A stretch of DNA of 23,041 nt from Alloascoidea hylecoeti (lineage: Eukaryota): positions 310,001-333,041 of the forward strand of contig BCKZ01000023.1 in NCBI GenBank assembly GCA_001600815.1. Reading direction: 5' to 3'. How positions within the stretch are numbered: position 1 is the first letter of the stretch; each line of letters starts with the position of its first letter. This document shows positions 1 to 23,041 of this stretch, piece by piece. A program made the translations under genes and the position numbers. The notes under the pieces were generated by a model, which was not told the DNA's origin, made no database searches, and worked only from the letters and a program-made list of their open reading frames with translations.

Positions 1-203
1 ACGTACCAGACAAGAGGCACAATCGCCATGGTCTAAATACGTTTAGTGGTAATACCTTTACCTTATATATTACATTCTTCAATAATACCCATATGTTTAT
101 CGGAGAAGAAAATCGACTTTGCATAAAATTATAACCCCATATGTACAAATATTAACTTAGAGACAATTGCATCTTAAAGAAAAAATGAAAAAAGAGGAAA
201 TAG

Positions 204-2471: not shown

Positions 2472-2704
2472 TTTATTGTGAAAAATGATGAAGATTGAAG
2501 ATATCGATGCCGAAGCTTATAATGTATATCTGTGAATGTTTGGGTGTTATATTTGGAGTAAATTGCTTGCTATAAAAAAAAAAAAAAAAAAAATTTAAAA
2601 AATTCCCTCTCTTTTCAATGATGAGAAAGTAATGAGATTTAACTAAGGTCAACTTCTATATCTATCTATATAATCTAGCTAATGGCACTTCTATATTTAT
2701 ATAA

Positions 2705-3850: not shown

Positions 3851-4415
3851 GATTGATATATTCAAAAAGTTTGGAAATTTAAATTGTAATTGTTGTGATA
3901 GCTTTTCATTGTAAATATGATTCACATTAAATCATCATAATAATAATAATATCAATTTGGCAATTTCACATGATAAACTATTACTAATGTATGGTTATTC
4001 CACTTAATTTCGGCTATTTGGTAACTAAATATTCGACTCATTTAAACTATTATACCATGATTATTATCGTAGTCCCAAATCCGAGTGAAAACATACAAAA
4101 CTTAAGGGATATACTGTTTAAAGTTTTGAAGATCATACTTTACACCAAGAATGTCTGAGGGGATCGAAAACAAAACAATTAATAATTCAACCAAGTTGAG
4201 GAATTATTTGCTTATAGTTCCAATGGGAATTTTACTTGGATACTGAATTCTGTATTCAAAATTGTACTTGATCACGTGCCAATGTATTTATCATCTCAAG
4301 AACGAATACTTAGTTCAAGAAATGCTGAACATTTATTCATACAATTGCCGAAATTAAATATACTGACCGTGTGTGAACTTAATTGTTTTTATTCCACCAC
4401 CACTTTTCATCAGAA

Positions 4416-5765
4416 ATGTCAGAAATACCCAAAACAACAGAAACCGACACAGATTTTTTTTCACTATATGATCCGAAAACACTATACTTGCTGAAGAAGA
4501 AAAAGAAAAAGGATCAAAAAAAAAAGTATGTTTGATAAGATTCCCTAGTAAGTTAATTTTTTACTAATTCTGTTTCTTTAAATAGAAAGCATAAACATCC
4601 AAAATTATCTACAAAGTTATCTGTTAAATCTGAAACAGAAGGAACTTCAAATGATATCGAAATAATAAATAATAAAGAAAGCACAACGTCTGTTTTGAAT
4701 GCCTCGGCCCGGGTTAAAGTTGATGATGATGATTTAATAGTACTTGATTCTGATTCAAAACGTAAAAGCAAAAGCGAAAACAAAAGCGAAAACAAAAGCA
4801 AAAGCCCCGATTTAGATCAAAGTCTCGAACAAGAACTTGGGTTAACTCCATCTCCTGATGAAAATGATGAACCAAAAATCGATCTAGAACAAATTCGTCG
4901 AGAAATTAGAGAAAAGGCTCTAATATATGAAACTGATATGGAGGTTCAAAGAATGAAACTTCGTCAACAAAATCCAATATCAGCCTCACGGTATGATCAT
5001 GTTACTAAAAAACAAAAAGTATCCAAGAGTAAATCACCAACTGAAGAAGTTCCAATTTATCATACACTTATTGAGTCACAAGTTCCTTTCTCTTTTGGTA
5101 TAATTTATAATATTAAAATCAAAGCAAATCAAGAATTTAGTCGAATATTAAAAGGTTGGTTAAAACAAATTCAACATGATTTAACGTGTGAGGTTACAAA
5201 AGAAGAATTTTTACGTTTATATAATATAAATAATTTATGTCTTGTTTGGCAAAATACTGAAATTTTACCTTATGTTACACCTGCTTCATTGAAAATTGAT
5301 GATGGATTTGGTGATGTGAAATTAATTATTATGACTAGAGATGAATTTCATCGCCAAGATAATCAAAGACGTCAGGATGAAGAAAGAGAAAGAGAACTTA
5401 GAGAACTTGAAGATGAAGCTGAAACGTATACGCCTCCAGCTCGGAAAAAATCCATTGAAATAGCTTCTTCACCAACAAATAAGGATGGAACTACTAATTT
5501 ACCAAGAAATTCTTCGAATGATGAAGAACATGATGATTATTTTAGAGTAGTAATGAAAGGTAAAGATAATGACCCAATAGCAGTTCAAGTTAATCCAGAA
5601 ACCGTTATTTCAAAATTGGAAAATTATTATAAACAAAAGAAAAATATTCCTGCAAATATTAAAATTACTCTTTTATTTGATGATGATAAGCTGGAATCAA
5701 ATCAAAAAGTTGGTGATACTGAACTTGAAAATGATTTTACCATTGATGTTATAGTTGGTAAATAA
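4416..5765 (+). CDS. ESC2: Esc2/Rad60 (RENi) family SUMO-like domain protein; 2 exons, 429 aa
   Basis: join(4416..4525,4586..5765); 60-nt intron GTATGT...TACTAAT...TAG, in frame with the track ORF. It has an acidic/basic N-terminus, a SIM-like DDDDLIVLDSD and a C-terminal SUMO-like domain FRVVMKGKDN...LLFDDDKL...ELENDFTIDVIV. Confidence 0.82.
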
Positions 5766-6228
5766 AATGAAAAATAAGCTAAAATATTAAAAAAATTAAA
5801 AGTAGGAGTTATATAGGGAGGAAGAAAATTAAATCAAATTTAAATAGTTGAACAATGAAAAAGAATAATAATTTGTAACATCTTCTGGATATGTTTCTTA
5901 TATTTGGAGCTTTAATAATTTATCATACTTTTGAATATCCAGGATCCCTTAAATTTGTCGTGATGATTTTTGTTATTTATCTTCAATTTTATGATATAAG
6001 TTTATAGCTGAGTATTATTAGGAATTACAAATATCTGTATACATAACACTATTAATAAATTTATCTTGTTTAATATTTAATTTCATATGTTCTTAAAAAA
6101 AAATCAAACGTTTAACACGTGACTACTCTATTTGGTGTCAGTTTTCAACATACAATTTCTTTAAAGTTTATCATATAATAACAATTATCATCTTTTGCCA
6201 TTATTCATTAGACATTCAGTACTATATT

Positions 6229-7347
6229 ATGCTTTTATGGTCAATAGGTGCTTTTAATCTCTTTGCATTACTTCTTTTTATATCGGGAACAAGTGCTGGT
6301 GTTCCGGCAATTTTTCTATCTCATCGATTGTAAGTTTTTTTGTCATTCAATAACTATTTAGAGAAAAACAATTTTCAAATAGAGCGGGAGAATTTAAAAC
6401 TAATCTCTCTAAATTTTAGAGTCCCTGCTTTTCAACGACATATACCGGATCCAAAACCAAAACATTTTCCCCTTGGAACTCTTCAAACTTTAACACGTCG
6501 TCTAATTGCACCATGCTCTTCAAATGCTTATCTTTTAGTAAATCAACCTGGATTAAGACTCTCTGATCTAGATGATCTTAATTTACGTGAGAAGCGCGAT
6601 ATATTTACAAATTTCAGAGGTTATTTGGACCATGCTTCTACTAAATTAACCATTCCTAATATTGAAGATGATGGATTACTTGATTTTAAATCACTTGAAA
6701 AATATATCATTAGAAATTGTCAAGCTGAATTTGTACTAGTGGAAGAGGATCCTGATCATCTCCAAGATTACTTAGATACTAGGAAAAGAGTTATTAGAGT
6801 TAATCTACCTGAACTGCCTGAAAATGAATACCTACGAAAAGAAATCTTAAAAGAAAATGATGAATTATTACGAGATGTTATTCGAAAGATTCCAACTCCG
6901 TATCATAGCATCTACTATACTTCATTATCCCCTTCTACAGAATTTGAAGACATAAAATGGAATATCTCTCCATCAGATTCAGAAATTCCTAATCATATTT
7001 TTTCTGATATTACTGGTACAAAAGCATCCCGTTTAGAAATTGAAAAAAATAAACACGAAAGTAATGAGGAACAAAAACCTTATTTCCCTCCCCGTAGAAC
7101 TCATCTATTAAAACATGAAGAAAGTCCAACATTATTTGATAGAAAGTTAATTATGGAAAATGGTAATGTTATTGTTGGGATTTTCACGATGGGGATTATT
7201 GTAATTAGTTATCATATTACGAAAAAATTAAATATAATTACCAGTACTGTAAAGAAAGATATTCTAACGCAAGACAATGACGATAAAGAAGTTGAGGATA
7301 CTGAAAATAATAATGATACTGAAAAAGAAGAATACAAAGACAGATAA
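6229..7347 (+). CDS. BIG1: Big1-like ER membrane protein (beta-1,6-glucan synthesis); 2 exons, 342 aa
   Basis: join(6229..6329,6420..7347); 90-nt intron GTAAGT...ACTAAT...TAG. Exon 1 encodes a signal peptide plus VPAIFLSHRL. The motif CSSNAYLLVNQPGL matches Big1 (C..D.Y.F.NQPGL), and there is a C-terminal TM helix VIVGIFTMGIIVISY. Confidence 0.85.
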
Positions 7348-7670
7348 TGTATTTAGAGATCTTATATAGGAACACATAATATTATTGTCAGTTATATGTG
7401 AGGCAGTATGATTGATGATGTTAAAGAAATATAATCCTTAAAAAGCAGAGTAGTTAATTACCACTTATGGTCGATTAATTTTCCACACGTTCGCTATGTT
7501 TCTATTTTTTTCCTTCAAAAATAACACTGTATTAATTTCAATTGTAGAGTTGGAATCTACATTTTGTTAGTACTGCAAGCTGCTACTTTTCCATTTATTC
7601 CATCAACTCAACCAGTTGGAGCTTGGAACCTACAGTAATTAAAAGCAAAGTAACGGGATTCTTCAGAATG

Positions 7671-8225
7671 CATCTCGATTGACTTTTTAATCAAGTGTTG
7701 TGTTTATTTTGGTTGACAACCTTTTCTCCATCATTGCAAGGTGTAATATATCTTATTAATCTTCATCTTCATAAATATCAATTGCAAATAGATATTTACT
7801 TGTGATCTATTGGAACATCATGCATCCGATGGACCACATTATCACAGGGGTAAGTCCATCCTGTTCCAAGTATAACCATAACCTCAGGAGCTTGATTGAA
7901 ATACTTGCTGAGGAGGAGTTCATTCATATTAATCAAACCATGGCTCTTATTGGTTTTGGTCTGTCTATATTTGAGAGATAAGATCATCCTCAGCAGGTAT
8001 TTCAATCAAGCTCCTGAGGTTATGGTTATATTTGGAACAGGATGGACTTACCCCTGTGATAATGTGGTCCATCGGATGCATGATGTTCCAATAGATCATA
8101 AGTAAATATCTATTTGCAATTGATATTTATGAAGATGAAGATTGATAAGATATATTACACCTTGTAATGATGGAGAAAAGGTTGTCAATCAAAATAAACA
8201 CTTGATCAAAAAGTCAATCAAGATG
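7671..8225. repeat. Long inverted repeat (arms 7671-7914 and 7987-8225, 72-bp spacer)
   Basis: Block-by-block comparison of the arms shows 8 substitutions plus one 5-nt indel over ~240 bp. Confidence 0.97.
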
Positions 8226-8450
8226 AATCCAAAAGCTTTTCGAGACTTTTTTTTTTTTGATTATGATCCAACTAAAATAATAGCAATTGGAGTTTAATGA
8301 TGTAGCTGTAGTAATTGTAGTGATTGCTAAAGAGCAAGGGGTAAATGCTGAACAAAACCTTTCAAAAGAGAGGTTCTTCTAGACTGACATATACTATCAC
8401 ATAGTGGATATGATCACAAACGAGAAGCGATAATACGATTATTTATGGAC
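7935..8450 (+). pseudogene. Fragmentary pseudogene of the divergent CLK/LAMMER kinase (subdomain VII towards the C-terminus); part of it is mirrored on the minus strand at 7671-7914
   Basis: Frameshifted pieces are collinear with the 20561-21928 kinase: ALIGFGLSIFE (TLIDFGLAVLE), HPQQV, NQAPEV, GTGWTYPCD, MWSIGCMMFQ, HLVMMEKRLS, FDYDPT, SKERF. It carries stops and indels. Both ends are approximate. Confidence 0.88.
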
Positions 8451-8769
8451 CGCCTTTCTACCTATTAATGGCGCTATTTACGAAAATAATTAGGGAAAGT
8501 CTGAGAGTTACTTCGCTATATTTTTGTAAATTAGAATCGTATTTAGCGATCTGCCTGGATAAGTTGTACTTCTCACTGTTCTCAGACAATTAACTAGTGA
8601 TGTGTGTCAAATATAATATCGACTCTGCTGAAATTAGATTACCCAGACATTTGAAGATTAATTAAAAAGAGAACACAATTAGCATTGTGCCAATATTTTT
8701 CTTTCGTGACTTAAACTTATATAGTAATGGCTTACCCAACTCTAGTTTTTGTACATTCTCAATTTTATC

Positions 8770-9733
8770 ATCCTAGTAGGTACCAGTTGTTGCATCATCA
8801 CCATAATTTGGTTTTAATACCATCGATATCTTATCAATATTACATTTCTTGTAATAGTCCGATAAGATACTTGGGCTGATCATTAACTGGTAAATAGAAG
8901 AACCTCGAGCTCTAATATCTTTTGATCTCAGAAATCATAATTAGACATAAAACCAGTAGTACAGGCACATGAGAAAATTCCAAAATAATGAAGACAACCA
9001 GTAAGACTGCTTAGAACAAAGAATAAGTTATAGAAAATCTTAAGGTTGACAGACGAGAAATAGATTGATAGCAGTCGGAATGAGTGAAGGCAAACGAATG
9101 GCCCACAGACAGCTAAATAATACCCCTATATTGAAAATGTTTTTGAAGTATTTAAACATAGATTTCCCTAATTTAATATAATAACAATCTCAAAGAAGTC
9201 ATAAGCACTTCTAGATTATATCATTATTTCAGTACCTTCCAATAAAGATCATCAGAATTATTCCTAACATGATATACAATATATTTTGCAACAATAAACT
9301 TAAATAAAATTAAACAATGAAATACGCCAACAACTTTAAACTCAATTAACTTTAAATTACTTGCAGTTACTGATTTTCTTGCAATGACTTGATAAACCAT
9401 AGCTAGCGGCGTAGCCGCTGGTGAGATCACAAAAGCTATAGATAAAGGTAGTGATGATTACGTTCAATTTTTTTCTTTATAACTTCGTTAAATAAGATAT
9501 CAAACATTTATACGTGTAATTAGCAGAAGTCATATACATGAATACCACAGGTTATTATTAATGGGGATACAAAGTCAACGTTATTCATTCTCTAAATTCC
9601 ACTTTACTGTGCTCTCAAATGGTGAAATAACTTGAATAGTCACCAATTTAGGAAAACTCTATATACAGATCGAGACATCATCTCTTTTTTATAATGAACT
9701 CCTGCAATTTCACTTCATAATCAATACAGCCAT
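8770..9733 (-). pseudogene. Heavily decayed MFS sugar-porter (Lac12/cellodextrin-permease-like) pseudogene
   Basis: Collinear remnants in different frames: VVFMYMTSANY (TM1-like), KVVGVFHCLILFKFIVAKYIVYHVRNNSDDLYWK (TM5 and loop), LHYFGIFSCACT and ISEI..KDIRARGSSIYQL (post-TM10 SEI..RARG motif). Recognised by eye only; boundaries approximate. Confidence 0.5.
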
Positions 9734-10641
9734 TATTTAATTTCATCCGCCAGACACTAATGTTCGGCCGTGTTGATAAATAATTGCAGGACACTCCTTC
9801 ACTTATTAATCATTTAAAAATTTCAAACTATAAGTTATAGGCCTTACATAAGTCTGAAAACTTACCATAGAGTGTAGAAAAAGTAATAGGTTAAGGGGTG
9901 GCTGATAATCTGTAACGAGAAAGCCGAACATTTAGTGTATCAAATAAACATATATTTAGTTTGGAAAATGCCGAATATACAGCCAACATATGGCCGAAAT
10001 TAAGTGTAGTGGCTATATTTAAACTTTGAATGCGTCACAAATATCAACTAGCATCATTTACAATTTTCAATTCATATCCGACTCATCCCATAAATTAAAT
10101 GACCCATTTGGCCAATAACAAGAAGGCTATAGTAATACAAAATTACAATGAAGAGCTACTCGTGAGATCCCACCAGTAATATGTTAGCATATCATAATCT
10201 ACAATAATCTACTGGGAGTAATTATGATATTGTTTAATTATAGCCAAACTGGCGTAATATGCATATAATAATTATAATATCAAGCCATCTTCTTGATGAT
10301 AATACAATATAATGACCTCATATATTTGTAATGCAGTTGTAAGCTCCAATTGTCTGGTTGAAAGAATAAAATACACATATAAAGTATTTATGATAAATTT
10401 TTATAACTTTTATAGGCCTATATGTATAGTAACATTGTATACCTATATTCTAGACGATAAGTAAAAATCAAAGCTGTAGTTGCTAGGAACATCTACAAGT
10501 TAAACCAAGGAATTATGTATGATTGTATGATGAAGAAGTATAAATAAATACCCTTTAAATATTTAAAAGAGAAGAGCCATACGATCCGCAATATTGTTTG
10601 ATGAGATTGACCAATAAGAAGTTAAGTATTAATAAGCAGTT

Positions 10642-11110
10642 TCATGTTCTTCTTTCTCTTCTGGTGATGACCCCTAAGGTATACTCTAAATCTATTATGG
10701 AATAAAATTAATATTGATGCCTTATTCCATTAACACGCCGTACCAACAGTTGTAGAAGTATAAAGAAACGTACCTGGAACAATTACAACTTCATAGTTAG
10801 ATGTTGTAACCCTTACCAAATTCAATGGATCACCATGGTGCTTGTTGTCTGTAGGTTCAGCGGCATCTATATTATCTGAATCATTTGGCTCAAAACCAAC
10901 CCTGCTCAATTGCTGTGCCTGTAGAACGAGCTGTTTCGCGTGGTTTATGAAAATGAGAAGATCCTTTTCATTGACAGTAGCTGAAAATATCTGTCGATGA
11001 ATAGTAGACAGATCATCAGACGAAAGGACAAAAAGCGCAAGTAGAGGCTTGTTCGAGGAAGATACCAATTCGTTTATCTTAGTCTCGTACGATGGGGTAG
11101 CTACAGACAT
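10642..11110 (-). CDS. Roadblock/LC7-family protein (dynein light chain roadblock-like); 2 exons, 128 aa
   Basis: join(11110..10774, 10691..10642); 82-nt intron GTACGT...TAG. Splicing gives the C-terminus DPLNLVRVTTSNYEVVIVPDLEYTLGVITRR, matching the roadblock pattern D.L..LR.RT...E..I.PD..Y.L.V. Confidence 0.75.
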
Positions 11111-11340
11111 ATTTGGCCCAAAATGCAAAAGGAAGGTGCAACGGTCGGAGGCAAAGTGTATGGGTGTGATCGCCGCTTCATATTCCTTGAAGCAAGATAA
11201 ACTTTAAATATCGGGTGATTTTAGGCTTCGAAACTTACGTTTAAATTTAATAAGGAAAATATATAAGCCACCAAATATCGTGCTTTTTTCTTTCGTTAAA
11301 TATATTTCTTCAAGAACATAAAAATAAACAATATAAAAAT

Positions 11341-11511
11341 ATGGCCGCTCACAAACTCATCACTAGATCGTTTACATCAGGAACTCAAAACTCTATGAAG
11401 CGATTAACATCTAAATATATCACACTTGCATATTTAACCCTCGGTATTACAGTTCCCTTTGCTCTGCCTCTGAAAACAACACTGGAGAGTCACAATGAAC
11501 AAAGGAGGTGA
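11341..11511 (+). CDS. Putative 56-aa single-pass microprotein, possibly mitochondrial
   Basis: ATG in A-rich context (AAAAATATGG), with TATATAA ~80 bp upstream. Sequence MAAHKLITRSFTSGTQNSMKRLTSKYITLAYLTLGITVPFALPLKTTLESHNEQRR has a basic, acid-free N-terminus and one hydrophobic segment. Not in the ORF track; no family recognised. Confidence 0.5.
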   Translation: MAAHKLITRSFTSGTQNSMKRLTSKYITLAYLTLGITVPFALPLKTTLESHNEQRR

Positions 11512-12218
11512 GACTCTTCATGCTTAAGTGAAGTACTTTTTCAAATATGGACTCAAATATGAACTCAACATTTTCATATTTTATTCTTATGTTGCATTAT
11601 GGCGCTGCAGTGCAGGTCTTTCGTTTTGATATAATATAATGGCGCATGTTTATGACTATCTATATGGATCACTACAATAGGTTTTATTTATCGCAATTGT
11701 TTCTTGTTTTGGTTTTTATCCTTCCATGGTGGATTGAGTTTGATTTATTGCAAACGGAGTTTCTTTATAAAGCCTATGATTATAAAGATGTTAACTATTA
11801 TATAATTAACTCTATTCATGAAAATAATAAAAATGGCCTGATAATCTTTCTTTCATAAATACTTCTTAATTTTTTAATAAATTCATATGCATGTTAGATA
11901 TTTGACAAAACCAACTTAAGCCCTTTGATTTTAAATCCGGGATATAAAAAAAATAAACTACGAGTAGCTTTTATTATCGAGATGGAACAAAGATATATTG
12001 AACTGTAACAAATGTTCCCATTTATTTTTAACTTTACGTATAATTTCAATTAATTATGTGTATTCCGCCTAAGGTTATTCTTTCTATAAGTTCTTGCAAT
12101 TGACTTATCTTTCTTCGTTATCTCTTCATTTGTTCCTTTAGCTTGACTTTTAAAAACAAATTTCGCATACGGTTGCATATAAATGATCCAAAAGAAGAAA
12201 GAATTTCATAAAAGCAAA

Positions 12219-12292
12219 GGTCTCTTGGCCCAGTTGGTTAAGGCACCGTGCTAATAACGCGGGGATCAGCAGTTCGATCCTGCTAGAGACCA
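12219..12292 (+). tRNA. tRNA-Ile (anticodon AAT/IAU)
   Basis: 74-nt cloverleaf GGTCTCT...AGAGACCA, anticodon loop CTAATAA, T-loop TTCGATC, Pol III terminator TTTTT at 12295-12299. Confidence 0.98.
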
Positions 12293-12299
12293 TCTTTTT

Positions 12300-12700
12300 C
12301 TAGATCCCTATTTCTTCCTCTGTAAAAAGATCCCAGCAGTTTTTTCATCCTGCTTCAGTACTCTTTTTATTACGTTTTTCTGGCCAATCTGGAATAATGG
12401 GGTTCAGTTTAGCCTTAATGGCCACTTCAAAAAAAAAAAAGTTACATAAATCTTGGAAGGGGTTTGAAAACAACTTTTTTTTGGTTTTTTTTATCACACT
12501 CTTATTATCAACTGTCACATTATCTTATTCTCAATTTATTGATATTAATCTTATCCATTCCTAACCCACGTTTCATTTACTCACACTTATTTATCCTTCT
12601 TAACTTTATGACTTTACTTCTTATTACACACATTTTCTATTTATCCGTTTTGACATAAAGAGAACTAATATTGCCGCTCATTTATAAATCAACATAGCTA
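12300..12700 (+). mobile_element. Possible degenerate LINE 3' end just downstream of tRNA-Ile copy 1
   Basis: An ATG-less open frame contains LFITFFWPIWNNGVQFSLNG, resembling the L1 ORF2 terminal W.IW..RN...F motif. Weak, single-motif evidence. Confidence 0.3.
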
Positions 12701-13019
12701 TTAATAAAATACAATTCATGTCATCTTTGACTTCCAATAGTTCTACCCCAACTTCTTCCAATGGTGGCGGAGCTACCATTTCAGGTAGTTAATACTCTGT
12801 ATTGATATTATATAACATTGACTTTACAAATAATGATTCTACACAGCATATAATAACAATACAAAATATTAACTACCTGAAACCTACTATCCTAGCCTTC
12901 TGTTAATTCATCAACAGCTTTCAAATATATATTCTATGTTTTATTATCATCACTTTTATGAAGTGTTCCCTTAGGAGGTATTGGTAATCTATAAATTTCT
13001 TAATATGAATATAGATTTT

Positions 13020-13590
13020 ATATTTACAAAGGGGATGATACCAATAGTACATTGTAGTCACCTTTCCAGATGTCTATGGCTTGCAACTTTATATTCAGAC
13101 AAGCTCTAGCCTTGTAAAGTTGCTAAATCATTGCCATTTGATTGTCTTCAAGAAACAAAACAATCATACAGAAAGTTTGTAGTCCCTCGCCATATTCATT
13201 GGGATTTGATGGATCAGGTTGCTAGGCCTTAGTTCTTGACGTGTTTCTAGAGCTTTTGTACTTATTGACGGTTTAAGGTTCCTTTATAATTTCCTGTATT
13301 TGGGATTTTTTAATGGGCAAGATTGCGTTTGATAGTTCAGTTTAAAAAAGTTTAAAGCTTTTAAGCATTCTCTTACGAATATTATACTAATGATTTGATT
13401 ACGTATAGAATCTTTAATAAGTTGGTCAACATCTGATTTCGAAATAGGTGTTTCTAGGTGGTAGAATCCTTTCCTTATTTTCTTTTCATAATTATGGATA
13501 AAAAGACCTTTATTTTACTTTTTTTTGTACTTAATCATTTTAATGTAAATTGTACTAGCTGATCAATAGCTGAATAAAAAGAATTAAAGA
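13020..13590 (-). mobile_element. Stacked short LINE 3'-terminal remnants
   Basis: Minus-strand peptides KALETRQELR (~13228-13258) and NKGLFIHNYEKKIRKG (~13465-13515) resemble KNGAFIKKALELRKNIR at the end of the 14305-15081 ORF2. 13519-13584 is a diverged copy of the A-tailed 3' end at 13597-13664. Confidence 0.45.
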
Positions 13591-13596
13591 AAAGTG

Positions 13597-14150
13597 TTTT
13601 TTTTTTCACCTAATCATTTTATTATAAATTATACTTGCTAATCTATAAGAGGATAAAAAGAATATTTGAATAATTTTATATATATAACAAAGGTTTAAAT
13701 ACCTGTGTGGTAAAACCAAGTCTGATATCATATCTAATATGATCAACTACTTTATTTGTATTTCAGAATTAATTTATGTTTTTCCATTTTCGCAAACTTG
13801 ATAATTGAAGAGGACTTGTTAAATCAATAGAACTAAAGCGTCTAAGGACCAGTATATTCCATATTACCTCCACAGTAAGGCATATGTGCTTTATAAACTG
13901 AGAATCTTCCAAGGATGGATAAATCAAATCATTCAAGCATAGACTTTTCCAATAAGAGAGTTAAAAATATTGTAGTTTTTATTGGACAGCTATTAAAGAC
14001 ATGTTCTTCCGTTCCAGTACCGTTTTGTAAGCATAGGATACATTTGTCTAACTTACCATTTGATTGATCCACTGCCGGGGAGTCTAATGATGAGTGTGAT
14101 GTCTAAGATTAAAAGGATGTAAAAAATCTACGGACCCCGGATCAATGAAA
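13597..14150 (-). mobile_element. 5'-truncated, degenerate L1-like non-LTR retrotransposon (ORF2 C-terminus + 3'UTR + A10 tail)
   Basis: DPGSVDFLHPFNLRH, a CCHC knuckle KCILCLQNGTGTEEHVFNSCP (13983-14045) and EVIWNILVLRRFS, with frameshifts between them. A-tail at 13597-13606. Confidence 0.75.
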
Positions 14151-14176
14151 TTAAAAATTTAAAAGTTCACAAAAGA

Positions 14177-14250
14177 TGGTCTCTAGCAGGATCGAACTGC
14201 TGATCCCCGCGTTATTAGCACGGTGCCTTAACCAACTGGGCCAAGAGACC
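14177..14250 (-). tRNA. tRNA-Ile (anticodon AAT/IAU), identical to the copy at 12219-12292
   Basis: Exact reverse complement of copy 1, followed by TCTTTT on its own strand. Confidence 0.98.
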
Positions 14251-14304
14251 TTTACGGTTCTTTTTCGACCTTTCATATATTTTACTATTAAATTATATAA
14301 CTAG

Positions 14305-15305
14305 AGAATAGGTGATTTATTAAATAATACCAACCTAAGTTTACACTCAGTTATTCCAGTAAATCCGAGCAATAAGTTTAAAGGGAGATTAATTACATAC
14401 TTGAAAGCGTGGAGAGTAATAATAAATAACACAAAACTAAGAAATATACCAACTACTGAAACGGTACCAAAACTGACAAATGAAGCGTTACAAAAACTGG
14501 TAGAAAACCCAGGAGGAGAAGATATCGAAAAAAGAATAAAAGACATGGAAGAAGAAAACATATCCAAATACTCGATTAAATCAATAAGCCAAAAGTGGTA
14601 TAATAAAAACAAAATTATATTGAAACCAAGCAAATGGATGCAGTTAATTCCGGAACTAAAAAATGAAAATTGGAAGAAATGGTGGGGATTTATCAAAGAC
14701 ACATATAAGGAACACCCTGAGGAGACACAATGGATATATTTCCTCAGCTTGGGATATGTTACTCATATGCTACATCATAACAAAAAAGCAAAACAATGGT
14801 GGCAAAAATCTGATATTTGTAGTTTATGTCGACAAGGTAAAGACGACATATTACATCTATTTGAAGATTGCTCAACAATAAGAATACTAAAGAAGTTGAT
14901 GTTAGGAAGCGAAAGAATTGGGATCAAATTATTGATCATAAATATAGAAGATAACAATATAGAAAAAAATGGGGCTTTTATCAAAAAGGCACTAGAGCTA
15001 AGAAAAAATATTAGATTTACAGGGACACCACCACAAATATTAAATGTGATTGATTGGGGGCGGGGGGATTCTAATATCTAAAAACTTGAAAAAGTAAAAA
15101 ATATCTAAAAAAAAAAAAAATTATTTTAAAGGTGGTCTAGGTACATAAGAAGAGAAGAAAGAAGAGTGTCAAGAATACACAAAAATAAGAAGAATAGAAA
15201 GAGAGGTTTTTATTTCACTATATATAGTAGAGATTTCCTCAGAATTTACATAGTTTCTAGTTATGTAATTTAATTGGAAAATATATGAAAAGTTAAAAAA
15301 AAAAA
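14305..15305 (+). mobile_element. 5'-truncated L1-clade-like LINE (Zorro/Ylli-type): uninterrupted ORF2 C-terminal portion + 3'UTR + A-tail
   Basis: The frame is open from 14305 to the stop at 15081 with no initiating ATG. It includes YLKAW, WKKWW and a zf-RVT-type CCHC motif CSLCRQGKDDILHLFEDC (14818-14871). The purine-rich 3'UTR ends in A11 at 15295-15305. A related second copy lies at 15737-16505. Confidence 0.85.
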
Positions 15306-15625
15306 GATACTGTAAAGTTAAAAAAAAATATTCTATTCCTGAAACACATTTCACAGTTCTTGAAATAGCTCAATTCGGGGATATATACATATTGTATTTC
15401 ATTCTTACCGCACATTTAATATCTTATTATGTTTACTACTTCTAGGACTTTCTATATTAATAGCTGTTAGATTGATCTATATAAACATAAGATGAATCCC
15501 ACTTTAAAGGGAATTAAGTAAGTTTTAATACACTTTTTATCTTGATCTTAATAAGCCGAGTATCTGTTGATTTAGATACCTAAGTAAGTTATTAACTAGT
15601 TCCAACGCTTACTTTACAGTGAGAA

Positions 15626-15735
15626 TGTAAAGGAACTCATTATTCGACTATTCTTTGATTATTATTTCTTGTCTATATTAGGATGTAGTAAAGAAATAAT
15701 AATCAAAGAATAGTCAAATAATGAGTTCCTTTACA
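15626..15735. repeat. Short inverted repeat (45-bp arms, 20-bp spacer, 1 mismatch)
   Basis: 15626-15670 pairs with 15691-15735; the only mismatch is C15645/A15716. Confidence 0.95.
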
Positions 15736-15736
15736 C

Positions 15737-16505
15737 TTTAACCTTTTATATATTTTTTCAATTAAATTATATATATGGTGAAATAAAAATCTCTTTAACC
15801 ATTCTTCTTATTATTTTTGTATATTCTTGATATATCACTCTTCTGTTCTTATATTTCTTTACCTAGACCAAAGTAATTACTTTTTTTTTATTTTTTTACT
15901 TTTTTATTTTTTTATTTTTTGAAAAAAACCCCATTTTATTCTTTTTTCGATATCTTCTCCTGCTGGGTTTTCTACCAGTTTTTGTAACGCTTCATTTGTC
16001 AGTTTTGGTACCGTTTCTGTAGTTGGTATAATTCTTTTTTTTGTATTATTGATAATGGATTTCAAGTATGTAATCAATCTTCCTTTAACTTATTTGGAGT
16101 TAATGATATAACTGAGTCTAAACTTAGGTTGGTATTATTCAATAAATCATCTATCAAAATATTATACCATTGATAATTCAACTCTGTATGATGATTATCT
16201 CTTGAGTTTCCTGATTTTTACTTACTGCTTCCTTTAATTTTGGAGCATACATATGGATTTATATGTTTACATCCCTCTATGACCATAATATCTTTAACTA
16301 ATTGTTGTTTTATCAGTTTAATTATTTTATTTTTTCAAATTCAGCATTGAATTCTTAAAATGGGAACACTAAGATAAGTCAGATTCTTCAGATCTTCTGT
16401 TTTATAATTTAAAGCTGATTTGAATATTCGATCTTCTCTTCTCCTTTGACTTTCATCATTGAAATAAAATTTGTACAATTTTGATTGATTTACTCGCTTC
16501 ATGTC
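15737..16505 (-). mobile_element. Degenerate, internally deleted second copy of the same LINE family, inverted relative to 14305-15305
   Basis: 15934-16155 is a reverse-complement homolog of 14308-14541, and 15737-15930 matches the 3'UTR. About 0.5 kb including the CCHC motif is missing. Further 5' there are late RT-domain remnants MKRVNQSK and LTYLSVPI (the L..N..K and YLG.P motifs). Confidence 0.82.
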
Positions 16506-19200
16506 AATAACTTTCCTCTATGCAACTCGATGCATACAATAGTATGCAAATATTTGGCCTTTTTAATAACAATGGAACATGAGGATTGTGACGGAGGAAG
16601 AGATATTGTTCCACAGAAAAATCACCGCAAAACCAATATATAAGACATCATTATTATCGGAATGTGTCCTCCTCTTCTGTTGTTTTTTATTTGCACCATA
16701 ATTACGGAACTTCAAATATATGACTACCATATACATGTAACTTATAGACCGACAGAATCATTCAAGTTGGTTAACTAATTTGACAGGTTATGTTCATCAG
16801 AAATTACCCTCAAAAGCATCGAAAAGCATTTTCTCGTTCCTTCTCAACGCTAGCTGGCAAGGGTGGGCTTCTGATTCCGAACCGGTTCTAGAAGAATATG
16901 TAGCCTCAACGCCATTATTAATATTTAGTCGCGTATCCTAGTTGAACTCTTGCGTGGTCAACTCTTTCGAACTTTGCGAGTTTAACATTCTTTTTCTTAA
17001 TGTACTGCTTATGTTTGGTCTACTTTATAAAGTTTTCTTTTATGTGGTAGGAAGTTCAAGCTTAGGAAGATATGTTCCACGTTTATATAATTATAAAGTT
17101 TGACTCTAAGTCAATTTGTAATTAATATATTGTAAACCTATTAATACACTTGACCAGTATTATAATTATAAGTAATTAATTGCCAGACTTCCCATAAACC
17201 TATTTAGTATTAGTAGCCAAATGGAGCCACATCCACGTACCTAGTTCTCGCTAAACATTAGGATACTTAAACCTAATGACCAATGAGATGATGGAAGATT
17301 CTTCATAGACATTGGGGCACTGGATAGTCATGGCAAAAGTTTCAACATCAATGTCTGGAAAATTAGAAAACACAATATATATATTAATACTGATTGATAT
17401 GTTTTTATAATTTGAGAAACTGTACTAATACGATGAATTAATTTTATTAACCTAGCTTCTACTGAAAATGACAAGTTTGAAGAAGAAGAAGAAAAAAAAA
17501 CAGCAGAAACTGTTAAAGTCCTGTTCTCCCAGTTGCGTCAAAAATCCAATCGACTCTTTAGTGAACTGTTCTAAGAGTTTAATATATCCAATAGAAACTT
17601 CTAGATTTCCTTTCATATAATCACCCCCTTAGAAATATTTTTTGTGACAGTCGAATTCGAAAATAAGGAATAGGATCCGATCAAGAACTAGAGTAACTAC
17701 TTTCACCAATTGCAATGTATTCACACTTGATGTATAGTACAGTGATTTATACAACCAATTATCCCAGCTTTATAAAATAAATCTATAAACAGTAGAATCG
17801 ATGTTCGCCCACAGAATCATTATGATGAATATTAGAATAGAGTGGTTGTTGGAACGGCTGAGACATCCATGCATCCTACTCAACTAAGAAACAATAAATT
17901 ATTAATATTTGGAGGTGAGCCAAGAAAAGAAGTAATTACACTTGAGTAGTCAAATAATAGATAGGACTATGTGAAACCATACCATCGTTTTAATTGAACA
18001 TTAATTGTGTATACCCGGCTGGGAAAACCTAAGCGCTCTTTTATGTGAGCTTATGTGTACATGATGTGGTAAAATTTTGTATTGTAATTCTATACCATGC
18101 GGTATCAGGATACCCAGTATGGTGCTAAATGGGTACCAATATAGGGCTTCTGGGCTAAGTAATATCCATGATAAAGAGTAGGCAATCATTTTTCACAAAA
18201 AGAAGATATGTGAATCTCAACAACGTTATATGGAAGCTGATATCTAAATCTTATTAATTCTACATGAATTTTAAGAAATTCTATTGCACTTTATTTATTT
18301 GGTACCATTATTTTCAAGATATGGGTCAGACACTTAGATTAATGCAGCGACCAAGTATCGGTATAAGTATCATTACAAAACAAATATTTTCATTAAAGCA
18401 GAAATAATAATGATCCAGCAACATCGTTTTTATTAAACATTAGTTTGAACTTTCGTGTGTTAGATGATAATATTTAGCATTGAAGAAAGCTTTTGATCGA
18501 TGAAAACTAACCTGATTACCTTATAGCGTTGTTGCAAATAACCGGAACTCCATAACAAGGTATATTTCTCAGTCTATCGGTTCCGTTATACCACTGCAGT
18601 TATAAAAAATTAGACTAGTATACCAACCTATTTTACAAAACAAGTACTTGTATCTAATATCTATAGAATTCGCAATCCCTATATAATTAATATTATTAGG
18701 TGTAATGAGCTACAAGTTATATTTATATTATAATACATATACCTTTTTATTGAGACAGCTACATTAAAAATGTGGCACCATACTCGTCACTACTTAAGAG
18801 TGCGACTATTCAATTTACATATAGTCATCCCTCTAATTAATTGGATATCGTTATAAATAGCTAGCCTACATGGTTTTATATGGAAATGGAAGAGAGTACT
18901 CTTCAGCTGAATTGGAAAAGATCCTGAATCAAATTGTCTGTCGCTCTTTAAAAATTGGACTGCTGTTTTCCTGATTTTATTGTAAATATGCTGATTACCC
19001 CGTTGGGTAATTATTCTTTTACCTAGTATTCAAGGAGGTTCTGCGACAAACCTAATTTGCAGACTCAAAAAGCAAAATGCATATGTCAATTTAAAGAAAG
19101 GATATTTGATTATAAGAGTATTGTTATTTGGATTAATCCATGAATAAACAAATAACAATTTTAAATTGGAATGGATTAAAGGAAATCAATAGAATCATTT

Positions 19201-19334
19201 CGAAGGTTCTAGATATCTTTCTATACCTCCGTACACCCGATTGTCGTGATTGAATATTACTTCTAAACTAACCAACTTAGTTAGCTAGAATTTTCTACTT
19301 AGATAGTAGTTTACTTTTGAGATGAGTATATAAA
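19201..19334 (+). promoter_or_regulatory. Heat-shock elements and TATA box of the Hsp20 gene
   Basis: cGAAggTTCtaGAt at 19201-19214, aGAAttTTCt at 19287-19296 and TATATAAA at 19327-19334, which begins 117 bp before the ATG. Confidence 0.7.
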
Positions 19335-19443
19335 GACAGGTTATAGCCCTTAAATACTTATTGGTTTTCATAATAATAATCATACCTTCTTACAATTACA
19401 CATTATTACAAGCAACATAAATATTAAATTATAACAATTATAA

Positions 19444-19995
19444 ATGTCATTTTACTACTCACCAATTTGGGATTTTGTTGATTCAATCACAGATCAAGTT
19501 GATTCATTAAACAAAGAATTAAAAGATGCTGGTGTTACACGAGAAAACTATAGTAATCAAAATAAAAAACAAGTTTCTAAATCGAATAACAATAAATTAG
19601 ATAGGTGGGATCCTTTCCCCATAAAAATTAGTAATAATATTGATGGATTATTTACACCAGCAATTGATGTTTATAATAGTGATAAGCAAATCGAAGTATA
19701 TGCTTCTATTCCCGGTTCAGCTCAAAAGAATATTAATGTTGACTTTGACTCTAAATCAAATCAATTAACAATTAGTGGTGAAACAGAATCATCAACAGAA
19801 GAAAAGAAAAAAGATTTAACAATTAAAGAAAGAAGCAGTGGAAAATTTAAAAGAACAGTTAAACTATCAAAAGATATTGAAGTTGATGAAGAAAATATTA
19901 AGGCGAAATATAATAATGGAGTTTTAGGGTTAACTATTCCAAGGAAGGCAGAATCTATTGCTCCGAAGAGAAAGATTACTATTACAAACTTATAA
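19444..19995 (+). CDS. Small heat shock protein (Hsp20/alpha-crystallin domain), Hsp26/Hsp16-like; 183 aa
   Basis: PAIDVY, ASIPG, LTISGE, ERSSGKFKRTVKL and IKAKYNNGVLGLTIPR motifs. Confidence 0.95.
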   Translation: MSFYYSPIWDFVDSITDQVDSLNKELKDAGVTRENYSNQNKKQVSKSNNNKLDRWDPFPIKISNNIDGLFTPAIDVYNSDKQIEVYASIPGSAQKNINVDFDSKSNQLTISGETESSTEEKKKDLTIKERSSGKFKRTVKLSKDIEVDEENIKAKYNNGVLGLTIPRKAESIAPKRKITITNL

Positions 19996-20560
19996 TTAGG
20001 ATTAATTATATGGATTTGAATTTGCAATTAAATTATAGCTCTACATTTTATAAGACATAAAGTTAGCTATTATTTTTATTATTCATTGTTAATGTTTATT
20101 ATATATATCTTTTAATATAATTAATTATTAAAATAGTTTGCTTTTCAATAATATAAGCAAAGCACACTAAATACCTTGGAGTAGTAGAATCTTCTATTGA
20201 CTCGAAGTTTGGGAAAGAATTTGATAGTGGATGTTGGTTAGAAAAGAAGATATATACCGGTACAGTGTAAGCTTGCAACTTTCAACTTTTGAAGTAGTTT
20301 TCAAAGTAACACAATTATTCCAAAGGCAGTCAAAAACTATAGCTATAGGATAGGATAATTACCCTACATGTTAATTTCTAAATATTAATTTCTAAATATT
20401 AGCTATAGAATGGGTTATGTGCTTTACCTGTAGCTCAATATTAATATATCTATATAGGTTATCATTAATTATATATATATATTATTTTATTAAATTATAG
20501 ATAGATACGTTATATAGTTATTTTATGATCGTTAAATTTTATATTGTAATTAGAATAATT

Positions 20561-21928
20561 CTAAATTCCCATCGTGAACCATTCATGTTGTAATGCCTCT
20601 TCAGCAGTTATTCTTTTTGAAGGATCAATCGTAAGTAACTTTTTAAGCATATCTTTCATCGAATCTATAAATATGATTTCAGATTGATGTCTAGGTTTCC
20701 TTAAAAATGATGATTTAATTCCATCGAATACCTCATCTATACTTTCAGTTTCTGAAAACCGCTCTTTTGATTGTGACGATGAATCTGTATTTGGGAAATT
20801 TAGAACATATGGAAAGGTTACTCCACTTTCAGTCGGATCATAATCAAATACAAAATACTGAGATGCTTCTGATCTTTTTTGGATTGATTTTGCAATCATC
20901 TTGGGATCTATTTTTTTACTGAGCCTTTTTTCAATCATTGCAAGGTGCACGTCATCCTCATCTTCGCATATATCGAATAGTACTTGGCCAGTGATTAATT
21001 CGAACATCATACATCCTATTGACCACATGTCACAAGGATACGACCATCCTGTCCCAAGGATGACCTCAGGAGCTTGGTTGAGCAGACAAGACACCCTCTG
21101 AGGATGGCCTTCATTTTCCAACACAGCTAAACCAAAATCAATAAGAGTGACAGAAGAATCTGCTAAAAGCTTTCTTTTAGTCATTCCACTATCATGAACA
21201 AAGAATGAATTTGAATTGTTGAGTAATATGTTATCCAACTTCAGATCGGTATGGACTATCCCCGAATTGTGTACAAATGATATGGAACTAATCAACTGCT
21301 CCATCATCGATTGGACTTCTAACAAATTATAAGAACTAGCCATCACAGTATAAGGATTTAGATCATACTGAGTAATAGTTTTAGCCATATATGTATCCAA
21401 GTTGTCCCCCAACAAGTCGGACACAATACATATATGTCCCTTAAATACAAAACAATCTTTAATTTCCATACATCCATTTTGTTTGGATTGACCATCCCGG
21501 GATAGTTTTAATAAAATTCTAATTTCTTTTAAGATATTTAAAATAGTAAACTGTGTATTGTGATTGGAACTTGAAAGTATTGATTTGGATATTTTAATAG
21601 AGACATATTCTTTTGTTTCCGTATCATAAGCAGAAGTAACTCTTCCAAAACATCCTTGTCCCAGAATATTTTGAATTATATATTTTTGCGAAAACACAGA
21701 ACCTTTTTCTATAATATAATGGCCTTCATTATCATCACTGTATGTGTCATTGGTGCTAGTATGAGGGTCGTCTAGTGTTCTGATACTAGTTAATATTGCT
21801 CGAAGTTGAGTTGTTTGGGCATCCTCATCCAGAGTGATCTCATCATATTGCCATTTACTTTTTGGTAATAACTTTATAGCGACTGCCAGTGGAAGTGAAT
21901 CGAAATAATTATTGGAAACAGTAGTCAT
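20561..21928 (-). CDS. Divergent CLK/LAMMER (Kns1/Lkh1-related) protein kinase; 455 aa, intronless
   Basis: DDNEGHY pre-domain motif, LGQGCFG, VSIK, HTDLKLDNILL, DFG, APEVILGTGWSYPCDMWSIGC, VHLAMIEK (EHLAMMER box) and DPSKRITAEEALQHEWF. Confidence 0.92.
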   Translation of the reverse strand: MTTVSNNYFDSLPLAVAIKLLPKSKWQYDEITLDEDAQTTQLRAILTSIRTLDDPHTSTNDTYSDDNEGHYIIEKGSVFSQKYIIQNILGQGCFGRVTSAYDTETKEYVSIKISKSILSSSNHNTQFTILNILKEIRILLKLSRDGQSKQNGCMEIKDCFVFKGHICIVSDLLGDNLDTYMAKTITQYDLNPYTVMASSYNLLEVQSMMEQLISSISFVHNSGIVHTDLKLDNILLNNSNSFFVHDSGMTKRKLLADSSVTLIDFGLAVLENEGHPQRVSCLLNQAPEVILGTGWSYPCDMWSIGCMMFELITGQVLFDICEDEDDVHLAMIEKRLSKKIDPKMIAKSIQKRSEASQYFVFDYDPTESGVTFPYVLNFPNTDSSSQSKERFSETESIDEVFDGIKSSFLRKPRHQSEIIFIDSMKDMLKKLLTIDPSKRITAEEALQHEWFTMGI

Positions 21929-22224
21929 TTTCGGAGATTGATTTTAGTTAATTAGAAACAAATTTATTGTCTAATTGTATGTGGCTCTAAATAATATATT
22001 ACTATTTGAGCTCTCTTTTGAAAGTGCGAAATAGAAAGGATGGAGGAGTGAAAAGATTTTCATACTTAATCCGGGCTAATAATGAGAGTATGATAGTTAA
22101 AGATTCCTAATTAATCATATGCTGATATATTGATCTTCGAAATGGTTCTATCGATGAAGTTCTTGATTCTATGTGCAACCTTCTTGTTTGGGTTTTAGCT
22201 TTATATATGCATACTGTTATATCT

Positions 22225-22251
22225 TATGCATATGCGCACACACACACACAC
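22225..22251. repeat. 27-nt alternating purine-pyrimidine tract including (CA)7 in the palindrome spacer
   Basis: TATGCATATGCGCACACACACACACAC read directly. Confidence 0.9.
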
Positions 22252-22514
22252 TCAAACAAGAAAGTTGCACATAGAATCAAGAACTTCATCGATAGAACCA
22301 TTTCGAAGATCAATATATCAGCATATGATTAATTAGGAATCTTTAACTATCATACTCTCATTATTAGCCCGGATTAAGTATGAAAATCTTTTCACTCCTC
22401 CATCCTTTCTATTTCGCACTTTCAAAAGAGAGCTCAAATAGTAATATATTATTTAGAGCCACATACAATTAGACAATAAATTTGTTTCTAATTAACTAAA
22501 ATCAATCTCCGAAA

Positions 22515-23041
22515 ATGACTACTGTTTCCAATAATTATTTCGATTCACTTCCACTGGCAGTCGCTATAAAGTTATTACCAAAAAGTAAATGGCAATATGA
22601 TGAGATCACTCTGGATGAGGATGCCCAAACAACTCAACTTCGAGCAATATTAACTAGTATCAGAACACTAGACGACCCTCATACTAGCACCAATGACACA
22701 TACAGTGATGATAATGAAGGCCATTATATTATAGAAAAAGGTTCTGTGTTTTCGCAAAAATATATAATTCAAAATATTCTGGGACAAGGATGTTTTGGAA
22801 GAGTTACTTCTGCTTATGATACGGAAACAAAAGAATATGTCTCTATTAAAATATCCAAATCAATACTTTCAAGTTCCAATCACAATACACAGTTTACTAT
22901 TTTAAATATCTTAAAAGAAATTAGAATTTTATTAAAACTATCCCGGGATGGTCAATCCAAACAAAATGGATGTATGGAAATTAAAGATTGTTTTGTATTT
23001 AAGGGACATATATGTATTGTGTCCGACTTGTTGGGGGACAA
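22515..23041 (+). CDS. Second copy of the divergent CLK/LAMMER kinase (5' part; cut by the window edge)
   Basis: ATG at 22515; translates MTTVSNNYFDSLP...HICIVSDLLGD, identical to the first 175 aa of the minus-strand copy. Absent from the ORF track because no stop is reached. Confidence 0.9.
   Translation, partial: MTTVSNNYFDSLPLAVAIKLLPKSKWQYDEITLDEDAQTTQLRAILTSIRTLDDPHTSTNDTYSDDNEGHYIIEKGSVFSQKYIIQNILGQGCFGRVTSAYDTETKEYVSIKISKSILSSSNHNTQFTILNILKEIRILLKLSRDGQSKQNGCMEIKDCFVFKGHICIVSDLLGD

Follow-up and report, generated by a model that had tools for sequence, protein, structure and literature searches.

Fold-back inversions have been described in Saccharomyces cerevisiae by Al-Zain et al. 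(2023; PMC10622511). That report places natural inverted repeats of 3-15 bp, some of them imperfect, at the centre of the inversions, and gives spacers of 6 and 35 bp, the 35-bp spacer occurring in wild-type events. It also indicates that mismatches in the priming repeat were corrected in the yeast experiments. Dicentric breakage and telomere capture are secondary events expected of such inversions. A second group of related structures comes from Caenorhabditis, where, according to Zhao et al. (2007; PMC1803023), near-perfect inverted-repeat gene pairs are kept alike across species, including C. elegans. In Drosophila simulans, two further papers describe hairpin-RNA suppressors that act on Dox-family meiotic drivers (PMC10317233, PMC10292708).

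We have analyzed a stretch of 23,041 nucleotides of the Alloascoidea hylecoeti genome, hereafter the window, in which a divergent protein kinase family is found twice in inverted-repeat form, once in a young repeat (21402-23041) and once in an old one (about 7636-8280). Both repeats were recovered by a repeat search, and tblastn placed them in the same divergent subfamily, in agreement with the original prediction. Its further claim that the two repeats are oriented alike, each with its minus copy to the left of its plus copy, was likewise borne out by tblastn. The two structures had been described as sharing the same geometry, which holds for their orientation and for the similar size of their spacers but not for their centres: the young repeat is centred in a promoter, the old one within the kinase domain. 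Spacers of 72 and 62 bp had been given; the measured lengths are 66 nt (old) and 56 nt (young).

The explanation that we favour, with modest confidence, is that two independent fold-back-type inverted duplications arose in a rapidly diverging, lineage-specific kinase family subject to birth and death, and that gene conversion acted from arm to arm. The accident would be an inverted duplication of the fold-back (snap-back or template-switch) type. The fold-back mechanism and the gene conversion are both steps that we infer. As in the yeast inversions described in PMC10622511, a short, partly imperfect central repeat is accompanied by a unique spacer loop and by perfect arms beyond it. The present events differ from those in being fixed in a wild genome, in that one of them is only the size of a gene fragment, and in their spacers of 56-66 nt, which exceed the lengths of 6 and 35 bp given there. 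The resemblance to the Caenorhabditis pairs of PMC1803023 is that divergent homologous genes and all of the intergenic DNA are joined in a single long, near-perfect inverted repeat, and that the arms are kept more alike than their age predicts; the difference is that the second gene copy is only partly visible here.

The kinase gene and its relatives

The intact gene, the left copy of the young repeat, occupies 20561..21928 on the minus strand, and the ORF list, Pfam and an alignment to CLK2 identify its product as a divergent CLK/LAMMER-type kinase of 455 aa. It matched the Pfam Pkinase family (E 5e-41) and human CLK2 (3nr9; E 2.8e-44), and all 19 PDB matches at E <= 1e-30 were CLK1-4. When aligned to CLK2, the catalytic motifs were all present, namely the glycine loop GQGCFGRV, VSIK (VxxK), HTDLKLDN (HxDxKxxN), DFG and APE. 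The helix EHLAMMERILG is the signature motif of LAMMER kinases; it has this form in CLK2 and reads VHLAMIEKRLS in the window kinase, a partial match. The activation/P+1 segment is SCLLNQAPE, versus STRHYRAPE in canonical members, including all of P0001-P0004, and because STRHYRAPE is absent the window kinase was filed as a divergent offshoot and not as a canonical member. Its N-terminal extension is short (83 aa).

Each of the 120 matches listed was a KNS1/Lkh1/dual-specificity/CMGC-type kinase or an unnamed kinase-like protein, and the named relatives among them were all KNS1/Lkh1/CLK/AFC kinases, with a best identity of 41%. The best full-length match among 1.84 billion representatives was 45% identical. 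Only P0244 exceeded 50% identity among the 150 matches listed; it is a 145-aa fragment without the catalytic HxD/K/N and DFG residues, and it reads as a further decayed member of the divergent kinase family in public data. A search of shorter proteins returned 126 matches, none closer than 49% identity, and no fragments of the window-kinase subfamily among them. The window kinase was absent from a 15-billion-protein collection by exact look-up, and a metagenome scan with the kinase yielded 98 stretches that fitted a pattern, one of which encoded a relative (24% identity). In a quick tree its end branch was 4.62 against a median of 0.16, the longest of 61 rows.

By these alignments the window kinase is a very divergent CLK/LAMMER kinase, 41-45% identical to its best relative. 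It is like canonical Kns1 (S. cerevisiae), Lkh1 (S. pombe) and human CLK1-4 in its kinase fold and catalytic motifs and in a recognisable remnant of the LAMMER helix (HLAMIEKRL), and unlike them in its low identity, N-terminal extension, activation segment and branch length. The altered activation segment and the dead relatives point to a small birth-and-death kinase family.

The young inverted repeat and its right end

The repeat search delimited two arms of 792 nt each (21402-22193 and 22250-23041) with 56 nt between them. Base-by-base comparison showed that the outer 778 nt are perfect and that the two mismatches, at 22180/22263 and 22191/22252, both fall within the innermost 14 nt. The left arm (21402..22193) holds codons 1-175 of the kinase and 265 nt upstream, and the centre of the repeat is located in the kinase promoter. 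The inner 14 nt of this arm (22180..22193) pair with 22250-22263 at 12/14 positions and are a candidate for a pre-existing short inverted repeat used for fold-back priming. The spacer (22194..22249) is a unique 56-nt loop with a short CA run at its end. On the far side, the right arm (22250..23041) is cut by the window end, and the second kinase copy (22515..23039, plus strand) is identical to the left copy over its first 175 codons, with its frame open at the window end. The intergenic centre between the two kinase copies measures 586 nt, and one of the two remaining mismatches falls where the last base of a primer would be.

Under the favoured explanation, a DNA end left in the kinase promoter by breakage or stalling would have folded back on the short imperfect inverted repeat (12/14 nt, 56-nt loop), and extension along its own strand would then have produced a head-to-head copy of the promoter and of at least the first 175 codons. 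The two mismatches are a difficulty for this account. In the yeast experiments of PMC10622511, mismatches in the priming repeat were corrected, yet two of them persist here, which counts against a fold-back origin.

The original prediction had called this structure a young intact palindrome. The repeat exists and has a complete gene on its left side; on the right, the window closes after 175 codons of the copy, so that a complete second gene is not seen. This leaves room for the reading that the young palindrome never held a complete second gene, and that it is either an assembly product at a contig end or a true, truncated copy of 792 nt whose boundary stopped the assembler, with the old relic then being the sole bona fide biological palindrome. 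We give this reading a low but appreciable probability. It draws on the right arm finishing exactly at the last base of the window, which may be the contig end, and on the complete identity (100%) of the outer 778 nt. That the window is a terminal one is made plausible by its irregular length and by the same piece extending at least 135 kb upstream. In addition, the metagenome scan gave one distant locus only and no independent assembly of the junction. The favoured explanation has to allow for an assembly problem, or for an arm of exactly 792 nt, at the right-arm end. What speaks for a biological origin is, in the first place, the centre, which is not blunt but consists of the unique 56-nt loop flanked by the imperfect 12/14 repeat; neither a missed adapter nor a strand switch would be expected to yield a centre of this kind. 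In the second place, an inverted repeat of the same kinase family lies 14 kb off, which shows that events of this type hit the family in vivo. We infer that the young structure is real DNA.

Provided that this holds, the young repeat represents a natural, fixed, promoter-centred fold-back gene duplication in a wild yeast, and an older, decayed example of the same gene family lies 14 kb from it. The two repeats would then offer two time points in the life of fold-back duplications, from their birth through homogenisation by gene conversion to erosion that starts at the edges.

The old inverted repeat and the history of its arms

The repeat search placed the arms of the old inverted repeat at 7700-7917 and 7984-8201 (218 nt, 97% complementary, 66 nt between them), and a gapped alignment with one 5-nt indel carried an identity of 97-98% out to about 7665 and 8230. 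The whole relic, about 7636-8280, measures 0.65 kb. As aligned and searched by tblastn, its minus copy (7636..7917, minus strand) corresponds to kinase residues about 279-363 and is frameshifted, and its plus copy (7984..8280, plus strand) corresponds to residues about 279-367. The spacer (7918..7983, plus strand), which had been proposed to be the DFG region of the kinase, indeed proved to be kinase sequence of the plus copy (residues about 257-279), reading GFG. The centre of the repeat thus lies inside the kinase domain, and it is asymmetric, with the spacer continuing the plus copy only. The relic matched the window kinase by tblastn at E 1.5e-19, against about 1e-7 for four canonical LAMMER kinases, which assigns it to the same divergent subfamily; the derived NQAPE of the window kinase is also present in it. 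As a palindrome it is not gene-sized, since the relic covers only residues about 257-367 of 455.

Five indels relative to the intact coding sequence (-8, +6, +1, +6 and +9) are common to both arms, as had been claimed, and imply that decay of the copy came before the duplication or homogenisation of the arms. The arms differ from each other at 11/247 aligned sites, and each is about 66-68% identical to the intact gene. Identity drops at both edges from a core of about 97%, although the outer ends are still kinase-like, as would be expected of gene conversion between the arms. Kinase origin is clear for the right outer end (0/2000 shuffles reach its score) and weakly indicated for the left outer 30 nt (31/2000), and the two outer ends are not alike (870/2000). 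The comparison of the core (about 97%) with the intact gene (about 66-68%) indicates that the arms are more alike than their age predicts, with a small sample at the edges. The evidence for gene conversion amounts to about 45 nt at the outer edges of the arms, the left edge being weakly significant, and this tells against the favoured explanation.

The original prediction had offered either an inversion after pseudogenisation or a gene palindrome that had lost its centre and whose arms were homogenised. The shared indels and the decay at the edges uphold the general choice between inversion of a pseudogene and homogenisation. A whole-gene palindrome without its centre fits less well than a partial inverted duplication of an existing fragment, because the relic is a fragment and its plus copy seems longer than the minus copy at both ends. 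Under the favoured explanation, the turning point would have lain at the DFG region, inside the kinase domain of a paralogous gene, giving a non-coding inverted repeat of 0.65 kb; intrachromosomal gene conversion would since have kept its central 230-250 nt near identical, and decay would have overtaken its edges and all other parts of the gene.

Alternatively, the old relic might be a snap-back reverse-transcription or hairpin-DNA product of kinase mRNA, or of a fragment, that was inserted as a ready-made palindrome, which we regard as unlikely. In both arms recognisable sequence ends close to one point of the kinase reading frame (about nt 1088 and 1102 of the coding sequence), as it would in a hairpin copied back to its own start. 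We searched for further pieces of the gene by comparing nt 1-781 and 1103-1368 of the coding sequence, the promoter and the 3' flank with positions 1-20000 of the window; the surroundings of the relic yielded neither N-lobe nor C-terminal kinase sequence, which also suits an insertion, and relaxed blastn and tblastn gave matches at noise level except at 8362-8393. LINE-like debris located 6 kb off, beside two tRNA-Ile genes, points in the same direction. By eye, however, the ends of the relic showed neither poly(A) nor a target-site duplication nor any retroelement sequence. The exceptional match at 8362-8393 is weak but colinear with the kinase (30/1000 shuffles reach its score); the plus copy may therefore reach 8393, at about nt 1191 of the coding sequence, and this favours a resident pseudogene.

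The differences between the old arms are enriched in transitions (9/11, versus 29/59 for five further pairs of repeats within the window; Fisher p 0.045), an excess that a purely neutral account does not predict and that counts against the favoured explanation. RIP-like mutation was considered as its source; the sequence contexts, from only 11 sites, showed no single dinucleotide preference.

The predicted hairpin and the genetic-conflict hypothesis

It had been proposed, as a hypothesis, that the palindromes and a cognate hairpin resemble genetic-conflict loci such as driver/suppressor pairs. In such a system the kinase would be a selfish or fast-evolving driver that is amplified as palindromes, and the old repeat a hairpin-RNA suppressor in the manner of Nmy/Tmy, which act on the Dox family in D. 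simulans. We consider this very improbable. If transcribed, 7630-8290 would fold as a near-perfect hairpin of about 250 bp, with a predicted energy of -435.7 kcal/mol (z -32.4; 0/20 shuffles fold as well). The extreme divergence of the kinase and the presence of at least three lineages of the family, two of them decayed, would also be in keeping with a conflict. A bioRxiv study on D. simulans (10.1101/2021.08.05.454923) reportedly concerns hairpin-RNA suppressors of Dox-family meiotic drivers. Six of the nine transitions between the arms make G-U pairs in a plus-strand RNA, but this pattern is not significant given the transition bias (6 vs 3 by strand).

Target-derived hairpin RNAs are established in flies (PMC10317233, PMC10292708). 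The Dox/Nmy system described there resembles the present locus in that part of a gene from a young, fast-evolving family forms an inverted repeat, which sits apart from an intact member. It differs in that the old repeat here shows no full complementarity of siRNA length to the intact gene. Hairpin and intact gene, promoter included, share at most 14 nt without a mismatch, two mismatches occur in even the best 21-mers, and the overall identity of hairpin and gene is about 66-68%. The suggestion of a cognate hairpin is not supported for this gene, although a closer target may lie elsewhere in the genome. Drive or toxin activity has nothing to show for it, and none of the tests supports the conflict idea.

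A more far-reaching form of it is that this yeast repeatedly turns members of its atypical, fast-evolving LAMMER-kinase family into hairpins, that the old repeat is a maintained hairpin-RNA gene silencing a closer paralogue elsewhere, and that the locus is a budding-yeast counterpart of Dox/Nmy in which the young palindrome is the next round of an arms race; we hold this to be highly unlikely as well. Neither the fold-back pair nor the divergent kinase alters current understanding; the conflict hypothesis would matter, but is now without support. On the favoured explanation, a function is likely for no more than the intact kinase gene and possibly the second copy, if complete beyond the window, and the inverted repeats themselves need have none.

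The remainder of the window was surveyed for other features. Between 5766 and 20500 there are 42 starts of stop-to-stop ORFs that reach 55 aa or more; Pfam was run on 29 of these ORFs and gave no match at E <= 0.01. The 13 omitted from the set were the three ORFs of the relic, the HSP20 ORF (scanned separately), seven that overlap longer ORFs lying in a different frame or on the opposite strand, and two others. Rfam applied to 5700-15800 found one tRNA and nothing else. The LINE-like debris and the two tRNA-Ile genes are situated 6 kb from the old relic. The original prediction had weighed its reading against the possibility that inverted repeats are equally common for any gene in this genome, and this possibility gained partial support: repeats of at least 40 nt in the window comprise 10 inverted pairs and 0 direct families, all 10 long pairs thus being inverted.

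The window kinase and its relatives

Both kinase inverted repeats of the stretch, a young one at 21402-23041 and a decayed one at ~7636-8280, most likely arose by ordinary fold-back inverted duplication, in a small family of divergent LAMMER-type kinases that evolves by birth and death. The intact member, the 455-aa window kinase (20561-21928, minus strand; ORF and Pfam), matched Pfam Pkinase at E 5e-41 and had 1392 matches at E <= 0.001 among 7456 candidates; all that bear a name among the 120 listed are KNS1/Lkh1/CLK/AFC-type kinases. When 1.84 billion representatives were scanned exhaustively, 370 matched at E <= 1e-30, and the PDB matches at the same threshold were all human CLK1-4 (19/19). 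In an alignment to CLK2, the catalytic motifs of the window kinase are in place. It reads VHLAMIEKRLS where CLK2 has EHLAMMERILG, and SCLLNQAPE where CLK2 has STRHYRAPE, a motif kept by four of four public relatives (P0001-P0004). The best full-length relative, P0001, was 41% identical in the first of these searches and 45% in the exhaustive scan. A quick maximum-likelihood tree was built from 61 rows (the window kinase and relatives P0001-P0060). In this tree the window kinase joins P0001, a placement to which the tool's long-branch warning applies, and its end branch of 4.62 is by far the longest of the 61 rows (median 0.16). The window kinase itself was absent from the protein collection by exact look-up.

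Among the 150 representatives listed, only P0244 exceeded 50% identity to the window kinase. This 145-aa fragment, located on one 12.9-kb contig, is 53% identical over residues 190-332 and reads HNNLNLES against HTDLKLDN and DFD against DFG. With both its catalytic loop and its DFG residues altered, P0244 is probably a third subfamily member that is catalytically dead or decayed. Since it exists, the case envisaged in the original prediction, that only the window copies exist, does not hold. These results describe a small, lineage-restricted kinase family that evolves fast and tends to decay. A search for LAMMER kinases in inverted repeats gave nothing relevant among the literature matches listed.

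Anatomy and origin of the young repeat

The young arms were placed by repeat search at 21402-22193 and 22250-23041 (792 nt each, with 56 nt between). A base-by-base check found the outer 778 nt perfect (21402-22179 against 22264-23041); mismatches occur at just two sites, 22191/22252 and 22180/22263, both of them transitions within the innermost 14 nt. The left arm comprises codons 1-175 of the intact kinase gene and 265 nt 5' of its ATG, and the right arm carries the identical 175 codons, its reading frame meeting no stop before the window ends. The structure is a head-to-head duplicate of the promoter and N-terminal third, with 586 nt from ATG to ATG. The anatomy first proposed was largely right, but "intact" and "palindrome of the gene" were overstated, as only 175 codons of the right-hand copy fall within the window and the old repeat is a fragment.

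Since the right arm halts at the window end, it may belong to a full second gene, be a copy truncated at 792 nt at whose edge the assembly broke off, or be an artefact. The spacer of 56 nt is not itself symmetrical, and the inner repeat, matching at 12 of 14 sites, is far above chance (about 1e-5 at 27% per-site matching, by our own arithmetic). Missed-adapter and strand-switch assembly artefacts are not expected to leave a unique loop of 56 nt with an imperfect repeat on either side. Because such a loop and repeat are unlike assembly artefacts, real DNA is clearly the more probable reading of the young repeat.

The young repeat has at its centre a short imperfect inverted repeat and a unique loop, with perfect arms beyond, the same central anatomy as the S. 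cerevisiae fold-back inversions described by Al-Zain et al. 2023 (PMC10622511). According to that study, natural 3-15-bp inverted repeats lie at the centre of such inversions, the assay used an 11-bp imperfect repeat, wild-type events had a 5-bp repeat and 35-bp spacer, and hairpins with spacers >12 nt are poor Mre11 substrates. In the sae2 clones described there mismatches were corrected, whereas two remain in the young repeat.

The old repeat, possible arm homogenization and the conflict reading

The arms of the old repeat (7700-7917 and 7984-8201) are 97% alike in the repeat search and 66 nt apart. By gapped alignment, an identity of 97-98%, with one 5-nt indel, reaches about 7665 and 8230 and collapses beyond. 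A tblastn search with the intact kinase aligned residues 279-363 to the minus strand (7900 to 7635) and, on the plus strand, residues 257-367 to 7931 to 8277, in several frames. With the window kinase the relic gave E 1.5e-19, its segments being 55-71% identical, against only about 1e-7 for four canonical LAMMER kinases, and it carries the same derived NQAPE motif; judged by its sequence, it is a member of the window kinase's divergent subfamily. Three-way alignment confirmed two further claims of the original prediction: the arms share indels, five in number relative to the intact coding sequence (-8, +6, +1, +6, +9), and the spacer is itself kinase sequence, being the plus copy running on into the DFG region, which reads GFG. 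The relic is a fragment. Relaxed nucleotide and protein searches near it found no N-lobe or C-terminal kinase sequence, apart from a weak colinear match of 8362-8393 to coding nt 1159-1191 whose score was reached by 30/1000 shuffles. The plus copy outreaches the minus copy at its inner end and perhaps, weakly, at its outer end, consistent with part of a resident fragment having been copied in inverted orientation.

Either old arm shares only about 66-68% identity with the intact gene; between the arms, 11 of 247 aligned sites differ. Just beyond the highly identical core, a kinase origin is clear for the right arm (score reached by 0/2000 shuffles) and weakly supported for the left arm at the colinear position (31/2000), and the outer ends are mutually unalike (870/2000). 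A highly identical middle with decayed edges is the pattern expected of repeated gene conversion between close inverted repeats. The earlier proposal of arm-to-arm conversion is reasonable, though few bases underlie it. The young repeat has the same inner-edge pattern, its sole mismatches adjoining the loop.

Where the old arms differ (7667-8229), 9 of 11 sites are transitions, as are both sites that differ in the young arms (22180-22263), together 11/13, compared with 29 transitions and 30 transversions (29/59) in five other repeat pairs of the window. One-sided Fisher p for the excess was 0.045 in the old arms alone and 0.019 once the young sites were included; an 8:0 transition core, picked after looking, gave 0.006. 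Six of the nine old-arm transitions yield G-U pairs in the plus-strand hairpin, and the other three lie at the outer end. Either a bias in mutation or weak selection for pairing could lie behind this pattern, the sites being too few to decide.

If transcribed, 7630-8290 is predicted to form a hairpin about 250 bp in length, at -435.7 kcal/mol (z -32), and the original prediction had likened the locus to a driver/suppressor conflict. Fly hairpin RNAs, as described in PMC10317233, work via siRNAs with full complementarity to their targets. Compared with the intact gene and its promoter, the longest exact match of the hairpin was 14 bases, and the best 21-mers had 2 mismatches. The conflict reading is unsupported. 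Inverted repeats arising widely, on sequence of any kind, would by the original prediction's own terms speak against it, and this is partly so: all repeat pairs of at least 40 nt within the window are inverted (10/10), with no direct-repeat families, which hints at a genome-wide bias to fold-back events.

Setting of the repeats

The window is AT-rich (about 27-34% G+C) and budding-yeast-like in character, and the contiguous sequence it belongs to continues upstream for at least 135 kb. ORF and Pfam analysis placed a HECT ligase C-terminus at 204-1631 and a Cys/Met-metabolism PLP enzyme at 2705-3850 (both minus), and a Rad60-SLD/ubiquitin-like protein at 4938-5765 and an HSP20 at 19444-19995 (both plus). 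Coding sequence is scarcely recognisable from 5.8 to 19.4 kb, where 29 of 42 stop-to-stop frames were scanned and none of the 29 matched Pfam; a 126-aa ORF there belongs to no family. A 337-codon open frame at 6334-7347 (plus), with no Pfam match and no ATG upstream or near its start, probably has a 5' intron or an alternative start. Its nearest atlas cluster, offered as a lead only, is BIG1-family (score 0.93), and its stop lies ~290 nt ahead of the old relic. Just past the relic's left arm, at 7560-7645 (minus), GTAGGT occurs together with an exact match to the TACTAAC branch-site motif and, ~80 nt downstream, a TAG; the set resembles a small yeast intron and may be due to chance.

Two identical, convergent tRNA-Ile(AAU) genes lie 1.9 kb apart at 12219-12292 (plus) and 14177-14250 (minus), forming an inverted match of 83 nt at 100%; in the stretch scanned, only the minus gene scored at or above the Rfam gathering cut-off. 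Immediately on the upstream side of that gene, decayed inverted repeats form a nest (14258-16154); within its span, the product of an ORF at 14545-15081 has a tail rich in Cys and His and gave no match in Pfam. The nest includes 234-nt arms at 86% identity and, at 15619-15742, a 60-nt hairpin with a 4-nt loop.
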